This document shows, piece after piece, positions 3,535-53,888 of a stretch of 64,000 bases of DNA (position 1 is its first letter; each line of letters opens with the position of its first letter). The notes under the pieces were generated by a model. The model worked only from the letters and a program-made list of their open reading frames with translations, did not search any database and was not told where the DNA came from. The position numbers and the translations under genes were made by a program. Origin of the DNA: a virus (lineage: Duplodnaviria > Caudoviricetes); the IMG/VR virus record IMGVR_UViG_3300043077_000092; one strand, 5' to 3'.

Positions 3535-4728
3535 TTACGCCAGATAGGTCATCGCCTCTGAATCCTCATCCAATACCTGCATCAAGCCCTTCTTCACGTT
3601 ATCGAACTTAGATGCATCTGTCGATACGAAGATTGTCTTGAGTGCGGTATCATGCTTACGAATAATCTTTACATAAGTCAGGACGTAAGCGATATCCTTG
3701 ATGTCATACTCATCCAACTTGGTGTAAAGCATCTTGATGAAGTCCTTATATACGGCTTCCTGAACATCCGATTCAAATGTTTCTTTAACCGGTGTTGTCA
3801 GGTATTTACCGATAACTTTAAGTGCGGTCTTGCTCTTACCGAAGAACTTTGTATAGAGCATCCCCTGAACCTCATAGTTGAGAACATCCATATTGTCCTC
3901 TGCGTGACTCAGCATCTTATCAAGGAATCTTCCATAGAACGCATCAATGTTCGAACCGTTCCATTCAGTTCCAACCATCGGCATTGCAATGATAAGATCC
4001 AGTGCTAAGTCTTTGGTAACACCCGTCTCCTCAACGATCTCATTGATCTCAGGCTTCCACATACGTGGGAGAATAACCGTTGCATACTTGCGGACTGTAT
4101 CTCCGTGCATAGCCTCGTATCTGGTCTCCAGAGCAATTGACAATGCAAATGCAATGTTTCTCCAGATTCTGTCATAGGTTCCATCCTCTGACCAAACCCC
4201 AGACTCTAACGTACTGTCAAGTGCGTTTGCAAACTGGGATGTACAGATAGTCTTGATTAGGCGGTTCGCTGCATCAATATACATCGGACCATTCTTCTGA
4301 TTGTAGTATCCTTTGATATGCTTAATCGCATCCGGAAACTCATCGATAACAACATCTCTCATTCTCTTGAAATCCTGACTGCTGTCTGTGAAGTCATCGC
4401 AGAATGCATTGATGACACCGGCTCTGCGATCATCTCTCTCCTGAAGAACCTGCTCAGTCTTATCAGACTTGTCCTCATTATTCATAGACTCTCTGATTTC
4501 ATCTGTCAGATAAGACGATCTCATGAACTGATAATCATCATTCGAATATCCTCTCTTGCGATCGTTCTGGTTGTTGTTTCCGTTGTTGTTCTGGTTGTTC
4601 TGAAAGAACCCGCCATTGTTACCGTTCTGACGGTTGTTATTCTTCCGTCCGTTGTTGTTACCATTGTTACCTCTGCGATTGTCAAACGATTCTCCATCCA
4701 GTGTAACTTTTCCATCCATTAAACTCAT
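3535..4728 (-). CDS. Hypothetical protein with N/G/R-rich N-terminal tail
   Basis: 397-aa ORF, RBS AGGAGG, TATATTAA upstream. Confidence 0.75.
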   Translation of the reverse strand: MSLMDGKVTLDGESFDNRRGNNGNNNGRKNNNRQNGNNGGFFQNNQNNNGNNNQNDRKRGYSNDDYQFMRSSYLTDEIRESMNNEDKSDKTEQVLQERDDRRAGVINAFCDDFTDSSQDFKRMRDVVIDEFPDAIKHIKGYYNQKNGPMYIDAANRLIKTICTSQFANALDSTLESGVWSEDGTYDRIWRNIAFALSIALETRYEAMHGDTVRKYATVILPRMWKPEINEIVEETGVTKDLALDLIIAMPMVGTEWNGSNIDAFYGRFLDKMLSHAEDNMDVLNYEVQGMLYTKFFGKSKTALKVIGKYLTTPVKETFESDVQEAVYKDFIKMLYTKLDEYDIKDIAYVLTYVKIIRKHDTALKTIFVSTDASKFDNVKKGLMQVLDEDSEAMTYLA

Positions 4729-10411: not shown

Positions 10412-12863
10412 TCATCTCACCTCTAACTCTAATTCTGATGATAGAATCACCTCTGCGAACTGGTGCAACTTTTGCACATTTTGCATGTCTGGTAAGAACT
10501 TTGATACTTGATACAGGAACTTCCGTCTTATCTCCAGATTGCATCTGGAATACTAAGGTAGAATCAAACAACCCCTTACTCATAGGGATTACTTTAAACA
10601 GTTCATCACCTTCCTGAAGTCTTGTAAGTTCAAGCATTGTTTGTCGTTTCTTTGTAGCTTTAAATGCCTCATCTAATTCTACTACTTTGGCGAATCCTTT
10701 CTTGGTAATAATGCAAACTTCATTAACACCTCTGCTCGCACAAACTCCCTGAACCTCATCACCATTTTCAAACTTGATAATACGCTGTCCTTTTGTCATC
10801 CTTCCAGTTGATGGAGACATTGATAATCTGAGTATAATACCAAGCCCCATCTTTGTATATACCAATCGTTCATTATCACTATCACTAAGAAGACCCATAA
10901 AGCATACGGCGTCTCCAGTGTTTAATGAGATTGCCCCAATTCTAGTTCTTGTAAGAACGAAATCAGAGAATGGAGTTGCTTTAATCAATCCTCTCTTTGT
11001 AAAGCAATAGAGACGATATTTCTCTGGATTATCCTTAATAGAAGAAATCGAAGTCTTAATTGCAGTAATCGCATTTCCTGTCATGCCAAGTAACTCTTCC
11101 AACGCCATACCTTTGGCGGATGGATCAGTTGCAGGTATCCTGTCAATAGGAAGATAACACCACTCACCACTATCACTACCAATATGAATGTAATCAACTG
11201 ATGTAATGTCATTGAAGTAGGCAACCACATCATCATTTGGTTCTAAGAAGCCAACCCCAATTCCATTAGGGGATAATCTCTTCACATACTTCTTTGTGAT
11301 AGCAACTCTGTAATGGAATATTGGTGTCTCTGTATCTTCGGGTTTGATAATCTGACACTGTCTTGGTTTACCAAACAGTTTCTTTCCCTCTTCCAATTCG
11401 TTCCAGATAATCTGCTTAATCTTGGTTCTTGAGGATAGTATCTCCTCTTTCTCTTTGATGCGGTCATCAATCTCTGCGTAGTTCTTCTTATACTCAGCGA
11501 TACTACCACGTTTCTGGTTCTTTAACTTCATATTAGAAATCAAGTCTGCCTGATAAGATGAGAAACCAAACTCTGTCATCAATCGATGAATGATTTCATC
11601 ATCTGTATTGGATGTCTTTACAACCTCAAATACCTTATCAATAAGTTCCTGACTACCTAACCGAACCAATGCCTCTAAACGATGTTTCTCTTCCTTAATC
11701 TTCAAGAGTTCCTTTGCAATGGTTCTATGCTTAATGTCAATTCTCCAGTCAATCCATGTAAGAATTGCATCCTTTAATGGAACTGAACCAGTATCCGACA
11801 TCATCCTTGTACGGTCTGCATAATTAAGCAAAATCTGAGCATAAGACTTCAGACCAAGCTTTGTATCATTATACAGTTCGTTTATTACATAATCTGGGTC
11901 TACCCCCTTCTTTAAGAGTATCCAGAATTCATTAGTCTCAAGATTAGACTTATCTGAGATATCCTTAATGCCAAGAGGATTGGAATGCTCACGCTGACCT
12001 ATTGCTTTGATAATAGAGTCCATTGTAGTCTTCTCAGGAAACCCATTGCATAAGATATAGTTTCCTTCCTCATGATAGATGAGCTTAGCCCTAATACGAA
12101 CTGTGCCAGAACCAGTTGCACATACATCTTTGATTACTCCATCATCAATGATGTCATATCCTCTCGGACTATCCGGAAAGAGATAAACCCTTTCCATTTC
12201 AGGATGCTCTAACAGAGCCTGTGTTAAACTAAACGCTTCAACCAGATTGAATGGAACTTTAACAAATGAGTTACCCCATGCAATACCAATCGTAAGGTTT
12301 AATAAGAAGTTTGGATACCTTGCAGGTAATACTACAGGTTCGACATCACTTCTCAAGTAGTTCTGTTGCATTTCAATAACTGAACTATCAAATTCCTCAA
12401 AGAAGCATTTCCAAGCATACTGGCTTAATCTTGCATCCAGATAACGAGGAGATGCTGCGTCATCACCTGCAACGGAACCTTCGTTTCCATCCATCTCTAT
12501 ATAGAGTGCATTGTTCTCCCAAGTCTTTGTAATGTTCTCAAATGCCGTTGCAATTGATTGGTCACCGTGAGGGTGATACTTGGTTGTTGCAGGGAGAAAC
12601 TCCAATGCTTTCTGATATCTCTTATCCGGATAAAGTTTCTTATCATGATACATGAACCAAAGCATCTTTCTAACAACAGGGATTAGTCCATCATATAACA
12701 TTGGACAACCTCTTGATACGGATACGTTTGTTCCATATATAATAATTGATTCCTTTGTATGGTCACCAGCATCGATTTCTTCGATATTCTGGTCATACAT
12801 CTCTTGTGTTTCTATAATATCCTGTTTCTTCGGTTTCTTAGAAACCGTTTTCTTCTTTGCCAT
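10401..12863 (-). CDS. gyrA: Type IIA topoisomerase subunit A (GyrA/ParC)
   Basis: DGLIPVVRK, YHPHGD, AASPRYLDARL (catalytic Tyr), GIAWG and C-terminal pinwheel repeats; RBS GGGAGG. Confidence 0.93.
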   Translation of the reverse strand: MAKKKTVSKKPKKQDIIETQEMYDQNIEEIDAGDHTKESIIIYGTNVSVSRGCPMLYDGLIPVVRKMLWFMYHDKKLYPDKRYQKALEFLPATTKYHPHGDQSIATAFENITKTWENNALYIEMDGNEGSVAGDDAASPRYLDARLSQYAWKCFFEEFDSSVIEMQQNYLRSDVEPVVLPARYPNFLLNLTIGIAWGNSFVKVPFNLVEAFSLTQALLEHPEMERVYLFPDSPRGYDIIDDGVIKDVCATGSGTVRIRAKLIYHEEGNYILCNGFPEKTTMDSIIKAIGQREHSNPLGIKDISDKSNLETNEFWILLKKGVDPDYVINELYNDTKLGLKSYAQILLNYADRTRMMSDTGSVPLKDAILTWIDWRIDIKHRTIAKELLKIKEEKHRLEALVRLGSQELIDKVFEVVKTSNTDDEIIHRLMTEFGFSSYQADLISNMKLKNQKRGSIAEYKKNYAEIDDRIKEKEEILSSRTKIKQIIWNELEEGKKLFGKPRQCQIIKPEDTETPIFHYRVAITKKYVKRLSPNGIGVGFLEPNDDVVAYFNDITSVDYIHIGSDSGEWCYLPIDRIPATDPSAKGMALEELLGMTGNAITAIKTSISSIKDNPEKYRLYCFTKRGLIKATPFSDFVLTRTRIGAISLNTGDAVCFMGLLSDSDNERLVYTKMGLGIILRLSMSPSTGRMTKGQRIIKFENGDEVQGVCASRGVNEVCIITKKGFAKVVELDEAFKATKKRQTMLELTRLQEGDELFKVIPMSKGLFDSTLVFQMQSGDKTEVPVSSIKVLTRHAKCAKVAPVRRGDSIIRIRVRGEMNER

Positions 12864-45173: not shown

Positions 45174-45761
45174 ATGATTATACTTGTCGGTCCGACAGGG
45201 TCCGGAAAAACATCTACACTTAAAGCACTTTGTGAGATAAATGGAATGGTTCCATTATATACATTTACAACTAGACCACCAAGAGGTGATGATGATTTTG
45301 GAACTTATTGCGTATTACCCGAGCAGTTTGAATCAATGCTTGAGCACAATGAGTTCATTTCTCATGCATCTTTTGACGCTACATTCGGTAAAGTATCATA
45401 TGGAATAAAGAAAATGTCTAATGGGGATAATATAAGAAACGTAGTAGTCGTTGGTACTTATGAATATATGAAAGACCTCTTACAATATGGATATGACAAC
45501 GACGGTGCTCCGTTCATTGTATATTTCCATATGTCTGATGAAGATATAATTAGTAAATACGAAGAAACAATCGGGAGAGCCGATGCTAGAGCAGATGCAA
45601 TAGCTAGACTGGAAAGAGATCGCAAAAAGAATAATGAGTTAGAAACCATGGCTCATATGACGATTAAAAATCCCGGTTACAAAGATACTCCAAAAAAAAT
45701 AGCAAGGGATATAATTACTGCTTATCAGAAATTTACCCAAGGGAAACGGTGGTGTGATTAA
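45174..45761 (+). CDS. gmk: Guanylate kinase-like NMP kinase
   Basis: GPTGSGKT, TTRPPR, YGI, RLERD. Confidence 0.75.
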   Translation: MIILVGPTGSGKTSTLKALCEINGMVPLYTFTTRPPRGDDDFGTYCVLPEQFESMLEHNEFISHASFDATFGKVSYGIKKMSNGDNIRNVVVVGTYEYMKDLLQYGYDNDGAPFIVYFHMSDEDIISKYEETIGRADARADAIARLERDRKKNNELETMAHMTIKNPGYKDTPKKIARDIITAYQKFTQGKRWCD

Positions 45762-46460
45762 ATGAAACAAGAAAAGACTATGCCGGGTATTATATTTGAC
45801 AGAGTTGATGCTCCGCATCCAAGGGTAGATTCAGATAATGCAAACTATTACTTGGAGTTCGATAAGACAGAAGATTACTTTGAGTACTTTGATAATGAGA
45901 TTGCTTTTATCAAGAACGTAGAGAGATTAGTTAGGAAGCATCAGTTTATCAGAGTTACTTATCCGAGATATCTTAAAGAGATAATTGGATTAAAGGAATG
46001 CCAAGTAATGCCCGGAATTAAAGCAGATGACAAAGGAAAAGTATCACTTGAGATGCATCATGGACCTATTCTTACATTGTTTGATACATGTGAGATTGTA
46101 ACAAATGCATATCGTGCAAGGGGTGCTAAAGATGTCAATACATTCGTTATTGCTAATGAAGTAGTTGAGCAACATAGACTAAATCACGTAAGGGTTATGT
46201 TCTTATGTAAGTCAGCTCATCAGAAAGTTCATGATGAAGGGATATTCTTAAATTATCGTCATGGATTTGGAGATACTTTAAAGTTCTTGGAGATTTTCAA
46301 AGATGGAGTTGATAAGAACATGAAAATTAAAATCAATGAATATCTCGCATGGAGTATGGAACATGACTCTACGGATAACAATGTATTCCGTATTGCAGAT
46401 ACAATGCGTGAATGGGGTAATAATGACTTTGACGAATTTGACTCAGTTGCATTAGAATAA
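45762..46460 (+). CDS. HNH-like protein, paralog of 53193-53888
   Basis: LEMHHGP...LCKSAHQKVH. Confidence 0.55.
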   Translation: MKQEKTMPGIIFDRVDAPHPRVDSDNANYYLEFDKTEDYFEYFDNEIAFIKNVERLVRKHQFIRVTYPRYLKEIIGLKECQVMPGIKADDKGKVSLEMHHGPILTLFDTCEIVTNAYRARGAKDVNTFVIANEVVEQHRLNHVRVMFLCKSAHQKVHDEGIFLNYRHGFGDTLKFLEIFKDGVDKNMKIKINEYLAWSMEHDSTDNNVFRIADTMREWGNNDFDEFDSVALE

Positions 46461-46478
46461 TTTTTGGGAGGGAATAGT

Positions 46479-46994
46479 ATGATAGATACAGTTTGTACCG
46501 TTTTACTTATTTTACTGGTGATGATTTTGATTATCACCAATACTTATCAAATCTTTACAGACTACTATAATAGAAAGAGGATGTACGATGTACAAATCGA
46601 AATGGCTCAGGCTCAACAGATGATGTCAAAAGATATGTCTTGGGATGATGCAAGAAAGATTTTAAATGACATTATATCGTTTACTGTAAGCAACTATATC
46701 ATCAATAATGGTATTACGAAGATGAAAGATGATGAATTGTCTATCATGTGGACAATGATGCTTGGTGATATATGCACTACTGTTGAGATGGCAATGTCTG
46801 ATGAATTAAAACGTCAGATAATGAAGACAGTAACAAGAGAATACTTTAGTCAGTATGTAAAGAATTCTGTACAGATTACAATCGTATATCAACTTGAGAC
46901 TAATAAGAAGAATACGGTTAATACTAGATTGGAACGTATACAAAATGCGTCAGCTTCTCCAAAGACACCTGAAGGAGAAAATACAAAAAAATAA
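46479..46994 (+). CDS. Membrane-anchored hypothetical protein
   Basis: N-terminal hydrophobic helix; RBS GGGAGG. Confidence 0.65.
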   Translation: MIDTVCTVLLILLVMILIITNTYQIFTDYYNRKRMYDVQIEMAQAQQMMSKDMSWDDARKILNDIISFTVSNYIINNGITKMKDDELSIMWTMMLGDICTTVEMAMSDELKRQIMKTVTREYFSQYVKNSVQITIVYQLETNKKNTVNTRLERIQNASASPKTPEGENTKK

Positions 46995-46996
46995 AT

Positions 46997-47052
46997 CAAT
47001 GGGCAGTACGTCACACAAACGCGTGATAATCGTACTGTCCATTGCACTTTTC
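46997..47052. terminator. Bidirectional terminator
   Basis: CAATGGGCAGTACG/CGTACTGTCCATTG with flanking A and T tracts. Confidence 0.7.
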
Positions 47053-47114: not shown

Positions 47115-47625
47115 TTTATCGGGAGTTTACCCGCTTGCTAGAATTGGTGGCAGGTGTAAAGGGTTTATCAATCCCTACGATCACTCTGTAGTTCACACCA
47201 ATAATGCTTTACCGGCGATAGTGCATAACACTAAACATCCGTTTCTACTCAACATCAATATTATTGCAGAGTCACTCCCAATAATACTGGTCAGAAAGGT
47301 CCTTCCAACCATAAGAATTCAACTTCAATTGCAATCTTGTCATATCTTTCACGACGTCTATTCTTCCACGCCGAGGGCGACCGTTTACCAAGTGTCCTTT
47401 TGTCTAATCTAATTAATGACCATCCTTAGATGCACATTCCTACTTTTATTTGTTTTGGTATCTGTTCTCGGCTTATCGGTTCTATGTGGTCTACATACGT
47501 TTAGCACCACCACCCAACGATATCACGTTGTGCATCTTTGGCAGGTGTAAGCATCCCATGCATTGAATAACTTACACTGGTCTTCGATAAGCTATAGTCG
47601 GAGCGACTCTTCTACCAGTCCGAAC
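47115..47625 (-). ncRNA. Large structured non-coding RNA candidate (~510 nt)
   Basis: ORF-poor 650-bp gap with many nested helices; G-U pairs favour the minus strand; 12-nt motif TTACACCTGCCA occurs twice. Confidence 0.65.
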
Positions 47626-47652
47626 ATTTTTTTCCAATTGAGTCCTCTTTTT

Positions 47653-48537
47653 CTATCTGGTTGTTTTCGATTGCGTACCCTTTCCAACTCCTATGGATGC
47701 CATATTCAGCATGGGTACTAAAATGTGATTGAAGTTGTAGCGTATGTCGATAAAATTCATAACCGTTTTGTCGGCTTCTTCAGTTTCGTAGGTCTTCCCC
47801 TCAATTTGCAACTTGAATGTGGAATCCCCATTAAATTCCCGATAACACTCGATTGGCAATCGGAAAAATTTGTAGTCATCAATAACTCTAACGATATACT
47901 TCGTAGCACCCTCATAATCGAACTTTATAAGATACCTCAGGTACCGTTTGATAATAGGTACAATACCGTCCTGATGATGGTTCTCTAACAGTTCATTTCT
48001 GATGCCTTTGAAAGCAATATCGTCATCAAAGCTATTATAATAGACTTCATAAGTTTGGTGTCTGGACTCAAAGTTCGTTCTTAGTTCGTCCTGACCCAAT
48101 AGAAAATAAATATCATACGCGTGTTTCTCTGCGAATTTAATATAGTTACCAAATTCAGTTTGGTTCACATAATGTTTCAGAAACACCGCATCACGCTTGA
48201 TGGAAAAAATATCATCAACGTCAATATCATTCGCATTACAGAATATGATTCTGTACTTTGCAAATAGTCGTTCAAGACGTTTTCCAATATCTCTAACACT
48301 AGGGTCTTTGGAATATTTTAACTTTCCAACTGCCTCGTTTCGCTCAAACCCTTTTGGAATTTTTGAGAGTCTGTCAATCTCGTTTGGTGGAAGAAGCATC
48401 TCTTCCTTTATGATTGAGAATCCTCCATCACTCATATCATACTCAACAATATCCCCGATGTACAAATCCACTGGGTTTGTCCATCGGGGTTTCATTAAGA
48501 GATTTTTTGTTTCCTCTGTAATCAATTGCTGTCCCAC
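47653..48537 (-). CDS. Small divergent family-B polymerase-like protein (palm only, no exonuclease domain)
   Basis: Motif-A-like EYDMSDGGFSII, motif-C-like SIKRDAVF, then FKGI; only 294 aa. Confidence 0.55.
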   Translation of the reverse strand: MGQQLITEETKNLLMKPRWTNPVDLYIGDIVEYDMSDGGFSIIKEEMLLPPNEIDRLSKIPKGFERNEAVGKLKYSKDPSVRDIGKRLERLFAKYRIIFCNANDIDVDDIFSIKRDAVFLKHYVNQTEFGNYIKFAEKHAYDIYFLLGQDELRTNFESRHQTYEVYYNSFDDDIAFKGIRNELLENHHQDGIVPIIKRYLRYLIKFDYEGATKYIVRVIDDYKFFRLPIECYREFNGDSTFKLQIEGKTYETEEADKTVMNFIDIRYNFNHILVPMLNMASIGVGKGTQSKTTR

Positions 48538-49424
48538 TCGATCATTCTTCTTACATCGAGTCTCAGCTCATGGAGGATTTTGTCAACCAAGACTTTCTTG
48601 GAAGTACCCGGAACAATTCGGATTCCTTTACTACGGCAAACATCTTTGATGTCATCCTCGGACCTCTTCATCAGCAGTTCCTTTACCTTGTCTTCCATAT
48701 CCTCTGTGAAACGATTAAAGAAGACTGATAAGAAGTCATTTTCCGTTCCGGGGTCTGCTGCCATAGCCGCTGCTGTTTGTTCCTGTAGTACCAACCGTTC
48801 TCTGATTTCATCAACATTTCCAATGTTATTTACGATGCAGTCAATGTTTTCTCCGTCGAATTCATCAGAAACACCGAACGGTAAAGATTTCACGATTTTC
48901 TCATACTTTGGTTTATCATTATAATAAGTGATTAACCTTTCCAACTCGTCATACATATAACCATGCAACCCGAATTCACTGAGAATGAAATCTCTAATGT
49001 AATCCAAGATTCCGGCTACTGCTTCATAAGAAGCCATGACAATCAACACTTTCTCGCCAAGGTTTACCACCATATCTACGACGGCGCATAAGTCAGTGAA
49101 TGGTTCAACACTCAACAGATGAGAATTGAACATTTCAATGAATCTCTGCTTATCGCCGCCATAACAATACTCCATCGTCTGAGCAGTCGGTCTTAAAGAA
49201 TCAACAAACTCAATGTTGTCATACTTTGAAGCATAACTGATTCCCGTAGATACTCCAGACATAACTCCCTTTGTCTTAAGCGAGCCAGATAACTCATGAC
49301 TCGCTATAAGAATGGAATAGTCTGCAAGGTCGTTATACCTTGCAAACTTCATAATAAGATCATCGAAGTTAATAAAGATTAACGACCCTGTTTTCTCTCC
49401 AATGTTATTCATCGTCTCCGACAT
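48522..49424 (-). CDS. Hypothetical protein, DUF488-like N-terminus and C-terminal SAP/HeH-like motif
   Basis: LRPT...F...FNSHL...VLIV..YE; C-terminal LMKRSEDDIKDVCRSKGI...SKKVLVDKIL. Confidence 0.45.
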   Translation of the reverse strand: MSETMNNIGEKTGSLIFINFDDLIMKFARYNDLADYSILIASHELSGSLKTKGVMSGVSTGISYASKYDNIEFVDSLRPTAQTMEYCYGGDKQRFIEMFNSHLLSVEPFTDLCAVVDMVVNLGEKVLIVMASYEAVAGILDYIRDFILSEFGLHGYMYDELERLITYYNDKPKYEKIVKSLPFGVSDEFDGENIDCIVNNIGNVDEIRERLVLQEQTAAAMAADPGTENDFLSVFFNRFTEDMEDKVKELLMKRSEDDIKDVCRSKGIRIVPGTSKKVLVDKILHELRLDVRRMIEWDSN

Positions 49425-50985
49425 TCAAATTCATCTCCTCTCCAACCTTAATCGGTGTCCCATTTATAAATATCTTTGACTCTTCAGACGTTGATGAGGT
49501 TCTATCTTCATAAGCCAACTTGGTATCCTCGGCGGAAGATTCCTCAACCTGATCAACCTCATCATGCTCAGGAATATCCTCTGTAGGAACATTCTTTGGC
49601 TCCTGTGTATCAACGTCTTCTTCAACGGTTGGTTTGTTCTCCTGCTTGGTTTCCTGTTCCGGCTTCTTATTCTCTACAGGAGCCACAGGCTTCTCATCCT
49701 GAGCAGTTACCGTATACGTTGTCGTCTTCTGAGGCTTACTGGTTACCTGACGATTACGAATCTGGTTCAAATACTCATCTTCCTGACTTCTCTGATCTTC
49801 CTGATACTTCTCTTCAGCAGCTTTCTGACTCTGACGTGTCTTCTGAAGTAATGCAGAGAATCCGCTTTCCATATCGAAGTCATCATCTTCCTCATTCATA
49901 TTTGGTTCGGGTTCTTCCGCTTCCTCACCCAGATGGGCATATAATCTCATCACCGGAGGCTTTCCGTACATATAATTCTCCTGATAATTCTCAGTGTAAA
50001 CCGGCTCGGGAATATTCTCCTCTTCACTCAGGTTCTCAAACAATACCTTCTTAGCCTCTTCATCCTGTGGGTTCTTTGCGATCTTTACCAAAGCGGCAAA
50101 TCTTTCTGTTAGTCCATTCATATCTTCTTCTCCTTCCAAACTGTTTAACATTACCTTCATCATCATATCCTCCTTAAGTTTCTGATAACGATAATTGTCT
50201 CCGGGATTATCGATGACATATATATTATCCCCAACTAGCTTGTCACCGAACGTCTCGATATCTTTTTGCTTAACTCCCTCAGGGAGTTTAATCGATGATG
50301 CCTTTTGTTCTGCTATCATCTTAATATCTACTTCTTTTCCTTGTATCCTTTTTCTTTCGTTATACGTATACCTCGCTTTACATCCGCTTCGGTCAGTACA
50401 CATTAACACGTCATACGAGGAATCGTAGGTTAATACGCTACCGCATCTACTACAAGTAAACAGATTTTCTGTTGCTCGATGGCAATAAGCGTAATCTAAG
50501 ATTACTGGTTTTCCATTACGGATTCCCCAGTTGGTCATATTCTTTTTGACATATCCGACATCACCAAGAAGATAATCTTGACATAACGTATCTAACACTT
50601 TTCGGATTTCGTATCGATACAGTTCCCACTTTTGAGAGGTATTAATAACCTCTACACATTCGGCAATCAAAATATAACCATTAGTCTCAAAAGACTTAGT
50701 GACATACGGTTGAAGTTCAGGACTGAGGCTATACTCTATCAGGTTATCCTGATATCCCTGTTCATCCATTGCAAACTTTACCGCATACCCATCAATCTGG
50801 AGTACGATTCGATTCGTGGCACCACCAAGAATCTCAAAATCAATACCCCAAGTATAAAGTAAATTTCCAAGTGTAATCATTTTTTGAGCATTCGACTCTA
50901 TACGTTTGGTATCACAGATTGCAGCGATATACCGCAACTGCTCATCATTGAACATGATTTTCAATTTGCTCCTGACTGTTATCAT
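49405..50985 (-). CDS. Protein-kinase-like enzyme with zinc ribbon and acidic tail
   Basis: LGGATNRIV, AVKFA, E, DVG...NWG, ILDYAY; CSRC...C...C. Confidence 0.75.
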   Translation of the reverse strand: MITVRSKLKIMFNDEQLRYIAAICDTKRIESNAQKMITLGNLLYTWGIDFEILGGATNRIVLQIDGYAVKFAMDEQGYQDNLIEYSLSPELQPYVTKSFETNGYILIAECVEVINTSQKWELYRYEIRKVLDTLCQDYLLGDVGYVKKNMTNWGIRNGKPVILDYAYCHRATENLFTCSRCGSVLTYDSSYDVLMCTDRSGCKARYTYNERKRIQGKEVDIKMIAEQKASSIKLPEGVKQKDIETFGDKLVGDNIYVIDNPGDNYRYQKLKEDMMMKVMLNSLEGEEDMNGLTERFAALVKIAKNPQDEEAKKVLFENLSEEENIPEPVYTENYQENYMYGKPPVMRLYAHLGEEAEEPEPNMNEEDDDFDMESGFSALLQKTRQSQKAAEEKYQEDQRSQEDEYLNQIRNRQVTSKPQKTTTYTVTAQDEKPVAPVENKKPEQETKQENKPTVEEDVDTQEPKNVPTEDIPEHDEVDQVEESSAEDTKLAYEDRTSSTSEESKIFINGTPIKVGEEMNLNVGDDE

Positions 50986-50987
50986 GG

Positions 50988-52238
50988 TTAATCACCTCTC
51001 ATTAGACTCGTAAGTGCATCGACGAGATTTTCATCATCACAATACATCGGGTCAATTCCTTCTGGAGCATTCATCATATTCCCATACATCATTTGAATAT
51101 CTCCACCAGTTTCATTACTGTCATTTCGACGACGTTTCTTGTTCGCTTTCTTCTTTCTGCTCATTCTCTCTAATGATGAGCCTACATTCGAATACGCAAG
51201 TAAACGTGATTCTGACCATCCATTCGTTCTTGCTAACATACGGATAGTTTGTCTTGATAGATATTCTCTTCTGGTCATAGAACGACCAGTTACCTCATCC
51301 TGAACCATCTCATTCATACTTGGCTCAGCCTCTTTGATTTCCTCACCACTTGCAAGGCGAGAGAGTAACCCCGGTTCAGAGAACCCTAAATTCTCTTCAT
51401 ATCTTCTCTTAATATTCTCTGGGGCATTCTTAAACATTTCATGCTTCTTATCTGCATTATCGGTTTTATACCATGACTTAAATACACGATTGAGTTCTTC
51501 CAAACTTTCAATCTTGGTGGTCTTTCTATATCCACCACTATACTCTTCATCGAGCATACGCTCAATCGCATTTATTCTTCCTATAGATGTCTCTACATCG
51601 GATGATCGTTCAATCTCGACACCCTCAACATCTTCCTGCATTGCTTCCAATACTTTTCGGGTTGTACCCTCTGGTAAAGTTTTAGTCTTCACTGGTATCA
51701 TTCCAGTAACAAACATTTCATAGTCTGGTGATCGTTTTGACATAGTTGGGATTGGAGGTATCCAATCTCTAATCAATCCCATAGACAATTTTTGCATGAA
51801 TACATCTTCGCCATATTTCTCTATTAAGGTGTCGATATATGCGTTTCTTATTTTCATTGCGTTGAGATAATCAGTATATGATGTATAGATACGTCTTATT
51901 TGTCGAGCCGCTTTAAGCTCTGGAGACGCTTCGTTATCATTATAGTACTGGTCATAAAACTCTAACGATGACTGCATAAAGACTTCTGTATACTTATGAG
52001 CACACCTTGTTCTCCTAAGAATTGTCATAGTCTCATCATCAATCTTCGTTAATGTATTCTTTGACAAGACCGTCTTTGTTGACGGCTTGTCGGATGATTC
52101 TTTCTCCTGAGAGTTGGTCTCACCAGAGTTTTCATCTTCCTCATCAGTGAGATTATGCTGTTTCTTAAACTTTTCATAGGATTGGTTACTTCCTATGAAT
52201 ACACCGCCTAAATCTTCTAACTCTCTCTCATCATCCAT
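50988..52238 (-). CDS. Hypothetical protein
   Basis: RBS AGGAGG before ATG 52238; basic patch RKKKANKKRRR. Confidence 0.7.
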   Translation of the reverse strand: MDDERELEDLGGVFIGSNQSYEKFKKQHNLTDEEDENSGETNSQEKESSDKPSTKTVLSKNTLTKIDDETMTILRRTRCAHKYTEVFMQSSLEFYDQYYNDNEASPELKAARQIRRIYTSYTDYLNAMKIRNAYIDTLIEKYGEDVFMQKLSMGLIRDWIPPIPTMSKRSPDYEMFVTGMIPVKTKTLPEGTTRKVLEAMQEDVEGVEIERSSDVETSIGRINAIERMLDEEYSGGYRKTTKIESLEELNRVFKSWYKTDNADKKHEMFKNAPENIKRRYEENLGFSEPGLLSRLASGEEIKEAEPSMNEMVQDEVTGRSMTRREYLSRQTIRMLARTNGWSESRLLAYSNVGSSLERMSRKKKANKKRRRNDSNETGGDIQMMYGNMMNAPEGIDPMYCDDENLVDALTSLMRGD

Positions 52239-52271
52239 AGAAATCCCTCCTTTCTGCATTCGTATGTTGTC

Positions 52272-53096
52272 TTAATATATATCTATCTTTCCGAATCTAT
52301 TTTCCTCTCTAAATATAGAATTGAGGCAGATAATTCCATTGGTATCAAGACGAATGTCATGTTGATATCTTGACTGGAATAATGTCCATCTATCAGAGCT
52401 TGTTCTGAAATTCATTCTATGTTCCCGCTTAGAATACCATACCATATGGTTATATTCATAATTAGAGAACGCAGGAATATCCATATCTGGGTTGGTGACT
52501 TCTTTAAAAATCAGAATACGCATAGGATGAGCATCAAAACTTATATCATCTATGGTGGTATTATTCGGTATGACATTCCTCATGAACCGATACTGATAAT
52601 AGAGTAGATCTGATCCTGAGTCCTTGGATGTTTCAAGTGAATATTGTCCAAGGACATACTCAAGAATGTCAAATAACTCTGCAAGTGTCGGTGAATCAGA
52701 AATCTGGGTTAATGGGTTACACTCTGAATTTTTACTGAGAACTGGATGTGCGTTAATGAGTGAATGAATAATTGCTGAGTAGATAACGTAATATGGATTA
52801 CGTGAAGCGTATATCCAATCTTCCTCTTTAATATATCCACCCGGAAGTGAAACAGTTCCCGTCTCATCGTTTTCAAGTAACCATATTCCGTCATGAGTAG
52901 GATTGGTCAAAAGTAAATCACACTCGAAACTTACCTTCTCAGGAACCATCATCTGGAACCCTTCGGGATAAGTATGGGCTACCATTTTACCGTTTATAAA
53001 TAACTCTGGATTTAACAACGGTGTCATTACATCCGTTGCTCTTCCGGGGCTAAACTTTAGTTCAAAATCTTTTCTCTTTAAATAAATATCTCTCAT
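52272..53096 (-). CDS. Hypothetical protein, possible degenerate Nudix fold
   Basis: IWLL...SLPGGYIKEED without the REUxEE part of the Nudix box. Confidence 0.45.
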   Translation of the reverse strand: MRDIYLKRKDFELKFSPGRATDVMTPLLNPELFINGKMVAHTYPEGFQMMVPEKVSFECDLLLTNPTHDGIWLLENDETGTVSLPGGYIKEEDWIYASRNPYYVIYSAIIHSLINAHPVLSKNSECNPLTQISDSPTLAELFDILEYVLGQYSLETSKDSGSDLLYYQYRFMRNVIPNNTTIDDISFDAHPMRILIFKEVTNPDMDIPAFSNYEYNHMVWYSKREHRMNFRTSSDRWTLFQSRYQHDIRLDTNGIICLNSIFREENRFGKIDIY

Positions 53097-53192: not shown

Positions 53193-53888
53193 TTAAGCGA
53201 ATGATTTAAGCATCGATGGATCTACTCCATCTTCCATGTTAGTCTCTCCGTCTACATCCAAATACACAAACTGCACATAAAGGATCTTGAGTGCTTCTCT
53301 TAATTCCTCTGGGTGAGCTTTGAATCTTCTTGACTCCTGTACTTTCTCATCTAAAGCCATGAGTAATTCATCAGGAATCCAATCGTAATATCGTTTTGTA
53401 AACTCAACGAATCTACCATATACGCACCATAATGGTACGGGTAACTGGTTGTCGTGTACCAATTGATGGCACGTAACTGAGAGTGGGATTAAACCAACAA
53501 GTCCAGAGTAGTGGAGTCTCATAACTTCCTCTGCTACTTTGAGTTCGTCGATATAACCAATCTGATCTTCATGCTTACGCATTACGACATCAACGATAGA
53601 AAAAAGAGTGAATGGCGAATGATGAATTTCAATCATGCCCTTCTTTTTTCCACCTTTGAATTCATTCATGAACGTACATTCATTCATATCAACGTACTTA
53701 TGAAGATAGGTGATTAAGTCCGTATATTCAAGAGAACTTCTGCAATACGATTCGATCTGTTTTGTGAGTTTCACTCTCTGTTTGTCTGTTGTAGTAACAG
53801 GGAGTCTCGGTATAATAATTGGTTTATCAATATGAACAGTCTTAACGGACGATTGGTTTAAACTTGTTTCTTTTGGTGGAACTCTCAT
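53193..53888 (-). CDS. HNH-like protein, paralog of 45762-46460
   Basis: IEIHHSPFTL...LSVTCHQLVH. Confidence 0.55.
   Translation of the reverse strand: MRVPPKETSLNQSSVKTVHIDKPIIIPRLPVTTTDKQRVKLTKQIESYCRSSLEYTDLITYLHKYVDMNECTFMNEFKGGKKKGMIEIHHSPFTLFSIVDVVMRKHEDQIGYIDELKVAEEVMRLHYSGLVGLIPLSVTCHQLVHDNQLPVPLWCVYGRFVEFTKRYYDWIPDELLMALDEKVQESRRFKAHPEELREALKILYVQFVYLDVDGETNMEDGVDPSMLKSFA

Follow-up and report, generated by a model that had tools for sequence, protein, structure and literature searches.

Large ornate RNAs of bacteria and phages are rare, with about twenty classes, and for three of these, assembly into RNA-only dimers or nanocages was demonstrated recently. ROOL and GOLLD are large (500+ nucleotides [nt]) phage-encoded RNAs with multiple pseudoknots and unknown function, and in GOLLD, covarying self-complementary loops form the intermolecular bridges of RNA-only cages (PMC12286853). 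Here, we analyzed a 64,000-nt stretch of the jumbo phage record IMGVR_UViG_3300043077_000092 from IMG/VR (Duplodnaviria; Caudoviricetes), referred to as the window, and focused on a minus-strand operon whose last gene encodes a small family-B DNA polymerase (mini-PolB) and is followed by a structured noncoding RNA. An earlier note on this DNA, made from the sequence alone, had proposed that the polymerase might use the RNA as primer, template, or scaffold, possibly under control of a kinase from the same operon. Our analysis makes it fairly likely that the two are neighbors, not partners, i.e., an old accessory mini-PolB without a cognate RNA and a separate, clade-specific, probably self-associating ornate RNA lying side by side. 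The RNA and its main parts are as follows:

47118..47661, minus strand: pseudoknot-rich noncoding RNA of ∼545 nt, without Rfam match; its longest ATG-initiated open reading frame (ORF) has 44 amino acids (aa)
47597..47661, minus strand: 5' double-pseudoknot module, consisting of a hairpin (47623-47619 paired with 47602-47598) with its loop engaged by two strands from further upstream
47558..47563, minus strand: palindromic hairpin loop, a candidate intermolecular kissing loop, AUGCAU in the window copy
47120..47248, minus strand: conserved 3' module with GUAGAAACGG, CCGGUAAAGC, and a terminal T-loop-like hairpin

A related noncoding stretch is present at 14 loci (polymerase identity, 60 to 73%), at 12 of which it is full length, with a mean identity of 59%. 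Identity to the window copy amounts to 50 to 62%, compared with 26 to 59% at the four-fold degenerate sites of the adjacent gene, and none of five copies checked contains an ORF longer than 65 aa. Neither the window copy nor its homologs matched any Rfam model at the gathering threshold or at E values of up to 10. In the 5' half of the RNA, 88% of cells are paired and 23 of the 37 pairs have changed in both partners; by the same measures, the 3' half reaches 78% and 21 of 42. None of 500 shuffles of the 5' half reached the observed pairing, and slid controls gave 34 to 44%, but these counts cannot be read as probabilities, because the sequences are related to one another and the structures were derived from the very alignments being scored. 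Even so, individual compensatory swaps are clear. Given that the folding energy of single sequences is unremarkable (z of −1.1 to −1.8), the evidence for the structure is covariation, not folding energy.

At least four pseudoknots are supported. Within the 5' module, 47661-47657 pairs with 47618-47614 and 47644-47640 with 47609-47605; the upstream strand matches the loop variant of its own copy at all 14 loci, three of which swap CUGG and CCAG on both sides. Further pseudoknots connect 47582-47578 with 47422-47418 and 47460-47457 with 47389-47386. Since the first helix strand, ACCAG (47661-47657), lies within the last codons of the polymerase gene, the RNA starts at the stop codon. The folded region of ∼510 nt postulated earlier is thus a genuine covarying RNA, but it is ∼545 nt long and does not begin 30 nt behind the stop codon. 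As judged from sequence comparison, the RNA is real, conserved, intricately structured, and uncatalogued in Rfam. A putative late promoter at the stop codon (AACA-N6-TA) was discarded, because its AACA is unconserved and the conserved CCAG is the helix strand. Likenesses to RNase P, group I, and group II RNAs were rejected too, as the GCUUAU segment pairs locally and no model matched. The variable loops of the RNA hold duplicates of its own other parts, such as a 12-mer found at window positions 47550-47539 and 47159-47148 (minus strand), and in locus L057, at about 3860-3930, a variable loop carries a duplicated hairpin.

The palindromic loop reads GUGCAC in 8 of the 13 copies having this domain and AUGCAU in the other 5, and a nonpalindromic mix occurs in none of them. 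No intramolecular partner of the loop is shared across the 13 copies. The AUGCAU carriers do not form one clade (p-AU, 0.0004), showing that both ends of the palindrome changed together at least twice independently, and the decayed copy in L056 has lost the palindrome. In OLE and GOLLD, palindrome-preserving changes supported intermolecular kissing loops, and the oligomers were solved by cryo-electron microscopy (cryo-EM) (PMC12286853). This loop is the best available mechanistic clue to what the RNA does, pointing to RNA-RNA self-association.

The gene in front of the RNA is the following:

47653..48537, minus strand: mini family-B DNA polymerase core of 294 aa, standing alone and made up of palm, short fingers, and thumb, phrog_21037

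Its probable start is the TTG at 48525, which overlaps the upstream stop codon and fits the alignment of homologs better. The AlphaFold (AF2) model of the 294-aa protein has a predicted local distance difference test (pLDDT) score of 89, the top Foldseek matches are all family-B polymerases (E value, 1e-6), and VIA aligned 256 residues with the polymerase domain of RB69 gp43 (Z, 11.0; root mean square deviation, 4.4). The two catalytic aspartates, D34 in motif A (EYD) and D116 in motif C (IKKDA/IKRDA), do not vary among 54 diverse homologs of ∼30% identity, and K138/Y141 and K177/G178 are nearly invariant. The protein has no fused 3'-5' exonuclease domain, its motif C is noncanonical (not DTD), and it matches no Pfam family, PolB included. 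On the basis of the model, it is a genuine PolB core with intact catalytic residues, in agreement with the earlier description of an exonuclease-less PolB-like protein. The family comprises 925 clusters at 50% identity, and the best 150 of these 925 measure 224 to 290 aa. Its members include AR9 g239, PBS1 gp130, and phiR1-37 g276, all three annotated as “hypothetical,” as well as proteins of LPJP1 and of staphylococcal jumbo phages. In the literature searched, the coverage of which is incomplete, we found no description of this family or of the RNA.

Mini-PolB is the second polymerase of the phage, besides a 654-aa replicase. The idea that it is one half of a split replicase was ruled out by the existence of this separate enzyme, with which it shares no profile similarity. 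Genes for guanylate kinase and RNase H lie near mini-PolB in AR9 and MarsHill, a gene for RNase HI does so in LPJP1, and a dCMP deaminase gene does so in MarsHill, L047, and L048; these neighbors would fit a role of mini-PolB in DNA metabolism. A guanylate kinase gene is also located at window positions 45174-45761 (plus strand), and such a gene is found near mini-PolB in AR9, MarsHill, and the RNA clade. Group 1 jumbo phages have neither DnaG nor AEP primases, yet they keep RNase H (PMC7824862). The activity of mini-PolB, an unannotated and widespread second polymerase of AR9-group phages, therefore bears on an open question that is testable in the culturable phage AR9 (g239), although it cannot be the universal answer, since mini-PolB was not found in phiKZ. 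A ThyX-like motif (RHR...S) at G000:C1:190493-191188 suggests that this AR9 relative may have thymine, not uracil, in its DNA, in which case mini-PolB would not be tied to uracil DNA.

Distribution separates the polymerase from the RNA. The latter is restricted to one well-supported clade of the polymerase tree and is absent at 16 more distant loci (AR9, MarsHill, and LPJP1 included), where the gaps measure only 13 to 234 nt. Locus L050 contains the complete four-gene operon followed by a 37-nt gap and no RNA. We searched nine whole records for the RNA, all of them polymerase encoding (AR9, MarsHill, LPJP1, and six IMG/VR records, two of which are 53 to 62% complete). The covariance model scored at most 18 bits in these nine records versus 136 to 225 bits for true copies, showing that the RNA has not merely been relocated elsewhere in these genomes. 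In L058 the 3' half of the RNA is missing and L056 keeps the 5' part only (44 bits), while both polymerases are intact. There is one RNA copy per genome; none was found outside the polymerase context in phage or plasmid records, and motif scans of IMG/VR returned clade members and chance matches only. The RNA has no match of at least 16 nt elsewhere in its own genome and thus nothing that would indicate a templated product or a priming site. The expectation that the RNA would stay linked downstream of the polymerase across homologs is contradicted by the 16 outgroup loci and the nine whole records, and nothing in the analysis supports a role of the RNA as template or primer or under kinase control. 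As for the proposed polymerase-RNA pair, both members are real and adjoin wherever the RNA occurs, but most family members lack the RNA, which makes a functional pairing doubtful.

Two signals frame the predicted transcript:

52272..52283, minus strand: early promoter-like motif of the AR9 type, GATATATATTAA; it shares positions with the stop codon of a 274-aa gene lying upstream
46984..47044, minus strand: intrinsic terminator hairpin with U-tract (z of −7.7 and −6.6 on the two strands)

The promoter motif noticed earlier ahead of the operon, TATATTAA at 52279-52272 on the minus strand, is likewise retained upstream of this gene in L048 and L050. TATATTA occurs upstream of ORFs in this genome 22 times versus 4.3 expected, and the AR9 early promoter consensus resembles it (PMC5312081). 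Because the stop codon of the preceding gene falls on this motif, transcripts may also begin further upstream. A second TATATTAA at window positions 48144-48137 (minus strand), within the polymerase gene and ∼480 nt upstream of the RNA, probably arose by chance in coding sequence, but it may act as an internal early promoter. There is no conserved promoter of the RNA's own. As the earlier note had stated, no credible terminator separates the last operon gene from the RNA, and the first one comes after it; this terminator is probably bidirectional, with a convergent gene at 46464-46994, and terminators are also found 3' of the RNA in homologous loci.

On the reading that we prefer, mini-PolB would be a long-standing accessory DNA polymerase in jumbo phages of the AR9/PBS1/phiR1-37 group that works without a cognate RNA, probably as a low-processivity primer-extension or gap-filling enzyme beside the phiKZ-type replicase. 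The RNA would have been acquired by one clade at the 3' end of an early operon. Given the lack of a promoter of its own, it would be made by read-through from the early promoter and end at the terminator. Covariation shows that it folds into a compact multi-pseudoknot structure, and the covarying palindrome suggests that its loop most likely joins RNAs into dimers or higher RNA-only assemblies, comparable to those of OLE, ROOL, and GOLLD. More speculatively, 5'-to-3' mRNA decay may be blocked where the double pseudoknot meets the stop codon, as it is by exonuclease-resistant RNAs (xrRNAs), so that a stable RNA is left. The job of this RNA would be accessory, probably sequestration or scaffolding in early infection.

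The alternative that fares best places the RNA in cis, as a structured 3' untranslated region or processing ribozyme that stabilizes, dimerizes, or matures the operon mRNA. The missing promoter would agree with this, as would an RNA that starts in the last codons and ends at the operon terminator. However, ∼545 nt and at least four pseudoknots are, to our knowledge, far beyond the size of known 3' stabilizers, L050 keeps the same operon without the RNA, and no known ribozyme model matched. We therefore rate a cis-acting element as rather unlikely.

A further possibility is that the RNA partners another protein of the operon, either the HeH/SAP protein or the 416-aa basic protein, or that it is the relic of a mobile ribozyme, e.g., a group II intron fragment. 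The three remaining operon proteins are as follows:

50988..52238, minus strand: 416-aa protein with a basic C-terminal patch, starting at an ATG after a strong ribosome-binding site; 423 aa from an upstream ATG
49405..50985, minus strand: probable protein-kinase-like protein of 526 aa that contains a Zn ribbon of four Cys and ends in an acidic low-complexity tail, phrog_4301
48522..49424, minus strand: alpha/beta protein of 300 aa whose C terminus (residues 241-292) has an HeH/SAP/Rho-N-like motif, AF2 pLDDT of 81

HeH/Rho-N motifs bind nucleic acid, which would suit a protein partner, but the HeH/SAP and 416-aa proteins are both conserved in phages without the RNA. For a relic one could cite the internal duplications of the RNA, e.g., the 12-mer at 47550 and 47159, and the terminal T-loop-like hairpin, which resembles domain IA of group II introns. 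Yet Rfam gave no group II match at E values of up to 10, domain V is not recognizable by eye, and the RNA is present in a single copy per genome and was not seen in other contexts. This explanation, in either form, appears unlikely.

The observations that weigh against our preferred reading are those that would favor a ribonucleoprotein confined to this clade, in which the RNA was recruited as scaffold, primer, or template of the adjacent mini-PolB. Where present, the RNA always lies directly behind the polymerase gene (14/14 loci) and was never seen elsewhere, and its 5' strand overlaps the stop codon. Polymerases of the RNA clade share a clade-specific loop insertion of ∼13 aa. Moreover, the sister clade (L008, L009, and L031) carries a different, RNA-like noncoding insert of 400 to 550 nt in the same slot, which suggests that this position favors RNAs. 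The caveat on the shuffle counts given above has to be added to these points. Several results oppose such a ribonucleoprotein: the polymerase and the entire operon occur without the RNA; L056 and L058 have lost or truncated it and kept the polymerase and its insertion intact; no genomic match of at least 16 nt indicates a templated product or priming site; the enzyme fold is that of a PolB, not of a reverse transcriptase; and the adjacency reflects a single origin. Because the RNA was joined to the polymerase gene only once, in a single clade, their synteny does not count as independent support for a ribonucleoprotein, and because the adjacency, the ∼13-aa insertion, and the sister insert reflect one or two events, we consider this explanation quite improbable. 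Its furthest form, in which mini-PolB of this clade recruited a self-dimerizing 545-nt RNA as scaffold, primer, or template, making it the first natural PolB ribonucleoprotein, and the sister clade independently recruited a second RNA, seems very improbable.

The sister-clade inserts, located at L008:6800-7060, L009:6810-7290, and L031:6800-7340 (plus strand), have a common UUCC(G/U)GGGA...ACCC...GAAG motif. No homology to the RNA was detected for them, and they matched neither the RNA model nor Rfam; their sequences possibly represent a second new RNA.

The source record, a single contig of 220,062 nt, comes from a jumbo phage belonging to the AR9/PBS1/phiR1-37 group and encodes split multisubunit RNA polymerase subunits, the phiKZ-type DNA polymerase (phrog_2927, 654 aa), NAD ligase, DnaB, and terminase, and ARAGORN found neither tRNA nor tmRNA genes, leaving the genome without tRNA genes. 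The strong ribosome-binding sites (GGAGG) suggest that the host belongs to the Bacillota. The operon consists of four minus-strand ORFs of 416, 526, 300, and 294 aa, each abutting or overlapping the next, as the earlier note had described. Homologs of the 416-aa protein occupy the same position in the RNA clade and in sister clades, and family and fold searches for this protein gave no match. Searches of PDB sequences and an Atlas search returned nothing for the operon proteins.

The reading of the 526-aa protein as a kinase with a Zn ribbon, given in the earlier note, draws its support from invariant motifs. Across 16 homologs, the kinase-like residues K70, E84, D142, N152, and D164, which correspond to the positions checked (beta-3 Lys, alpha-C Glu, catalytic-loop Asp/Asn, and DFG-like Asp), are invariant, and the Zn ribbon cysteines are Cys178/181/196/202. 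PDB and Pfam hidden Markov model searches did not confirm a kinase fold, and these invariant motifs make the protein a probable kinase-like one. For the C terminus of the 300-aa protein, VIA gave a Z of 6.5 with the C terminus of T4 endonuclease VII, 5.9 with the N terminus of Rho, and 5.3 with a SAP domain. Residues 241-292 matched many HeH, SAP, LEM, and Rho-N domains with a Z of 4.5 to 6.5, which are modest scores for a small domain. Fold matches with a Z of 5 to 6.5 thus uphold the SAP/HeH-like motif noted before. A DUF488 profile weakly matched 1 of 16 family members (E value, 0.023), and no DUF488 was among the fold matches of the 300-aa protein.

Paralogs of phrog_12252 flank the region on opposite strands, at window positions 45762-46460 (plus strand) and 53193-53888 (minus strand); their assignment to an AR9 g233-like family is a guess. 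At G000:C1:115248-118946, a 1,232-aa fusion combines an AR9-type Zn-finger endonuclease domain with GNAT acetyltransferase domains. Other stretches of 0.9 to 1.7 kb without an ORF of at least 100 aa (G000:C1:60320-62034, 10583-11564, and 98838-99751) may hold further RNAs. Within alignment A7, a single sequence gave a match to the Thoeris inhibitor family Tad5 (E value, 1.4e-9); it is probably the gene upstream of mini-PolB in L010 or L013, whose upstream genes are nonhomologous.

Compared with described enzymes, mini-PolB has the palm/fingers/thumb topology, the motif A and C aspartates, and the KxxY and xKG thumb motifs of RB69 gp43, Pol alpha, and archaeal PolB. It differs from these polymerases in its size of 250 to 295 aa, in the absence of an exonuclease or N-terminal domain, in its short fingers, and in a motif C of IK(K/R)DA instead of DTDS. 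With retrons, DRT systems, and telomerase, the locus shares a polymerase gene adjoining a structured noncoding RNA; unlike in those systems, the enzyme is a PolB and not a reverse transcriptase, the RNA does not track the polymerase family, and there is no detectable templated product. Xrn1 and RNase J1 are both resisted by the xrRNAs of flaviviruses (PMC7603331), and the compact 5' pseudoknot that opens a 3' untranslated region here is similar to them by analogy only. The RNA shows no Rfam signature of domain V or D1-D4 of group II introns, circularly permuted ones included, and at 545 nt it is shorter than the permuted class of ∼900 nt (PMC8637638).

Likenesses also exist with the ornate RNAs. 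Like ROOL and GOLLD, this is a phage RNA of more than 500 nt with a covarying multi-pseudoknot structure and a self-complementary loop, although oligomers are only predicted here. Unlike them, it matches no Rfam model, is not part of a tRNA island, and sits at the 3' end of an operon in a lytic AR9-like jumbo phage. As in OLE, the palindromic loop switches between palindromes across homologs, supporting a symmetric kissing-loop dimer (PMC12286853), whereas the sequence and structure are different, the OLE model of Rfam does not match, OLE is chromosomal and not phage borne, and this RNA has no known protein partner. A new RNA class whose kissing loop has phylogenetic support could be taken straight to cryo-EM and would test the generality of RNA self-assembly. 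In sum, these comparisons place the RNA outside the ROOL, GOLLD, OLE, and group II families but make a mode of action like that of the self-assembling ornate RNAs probable.

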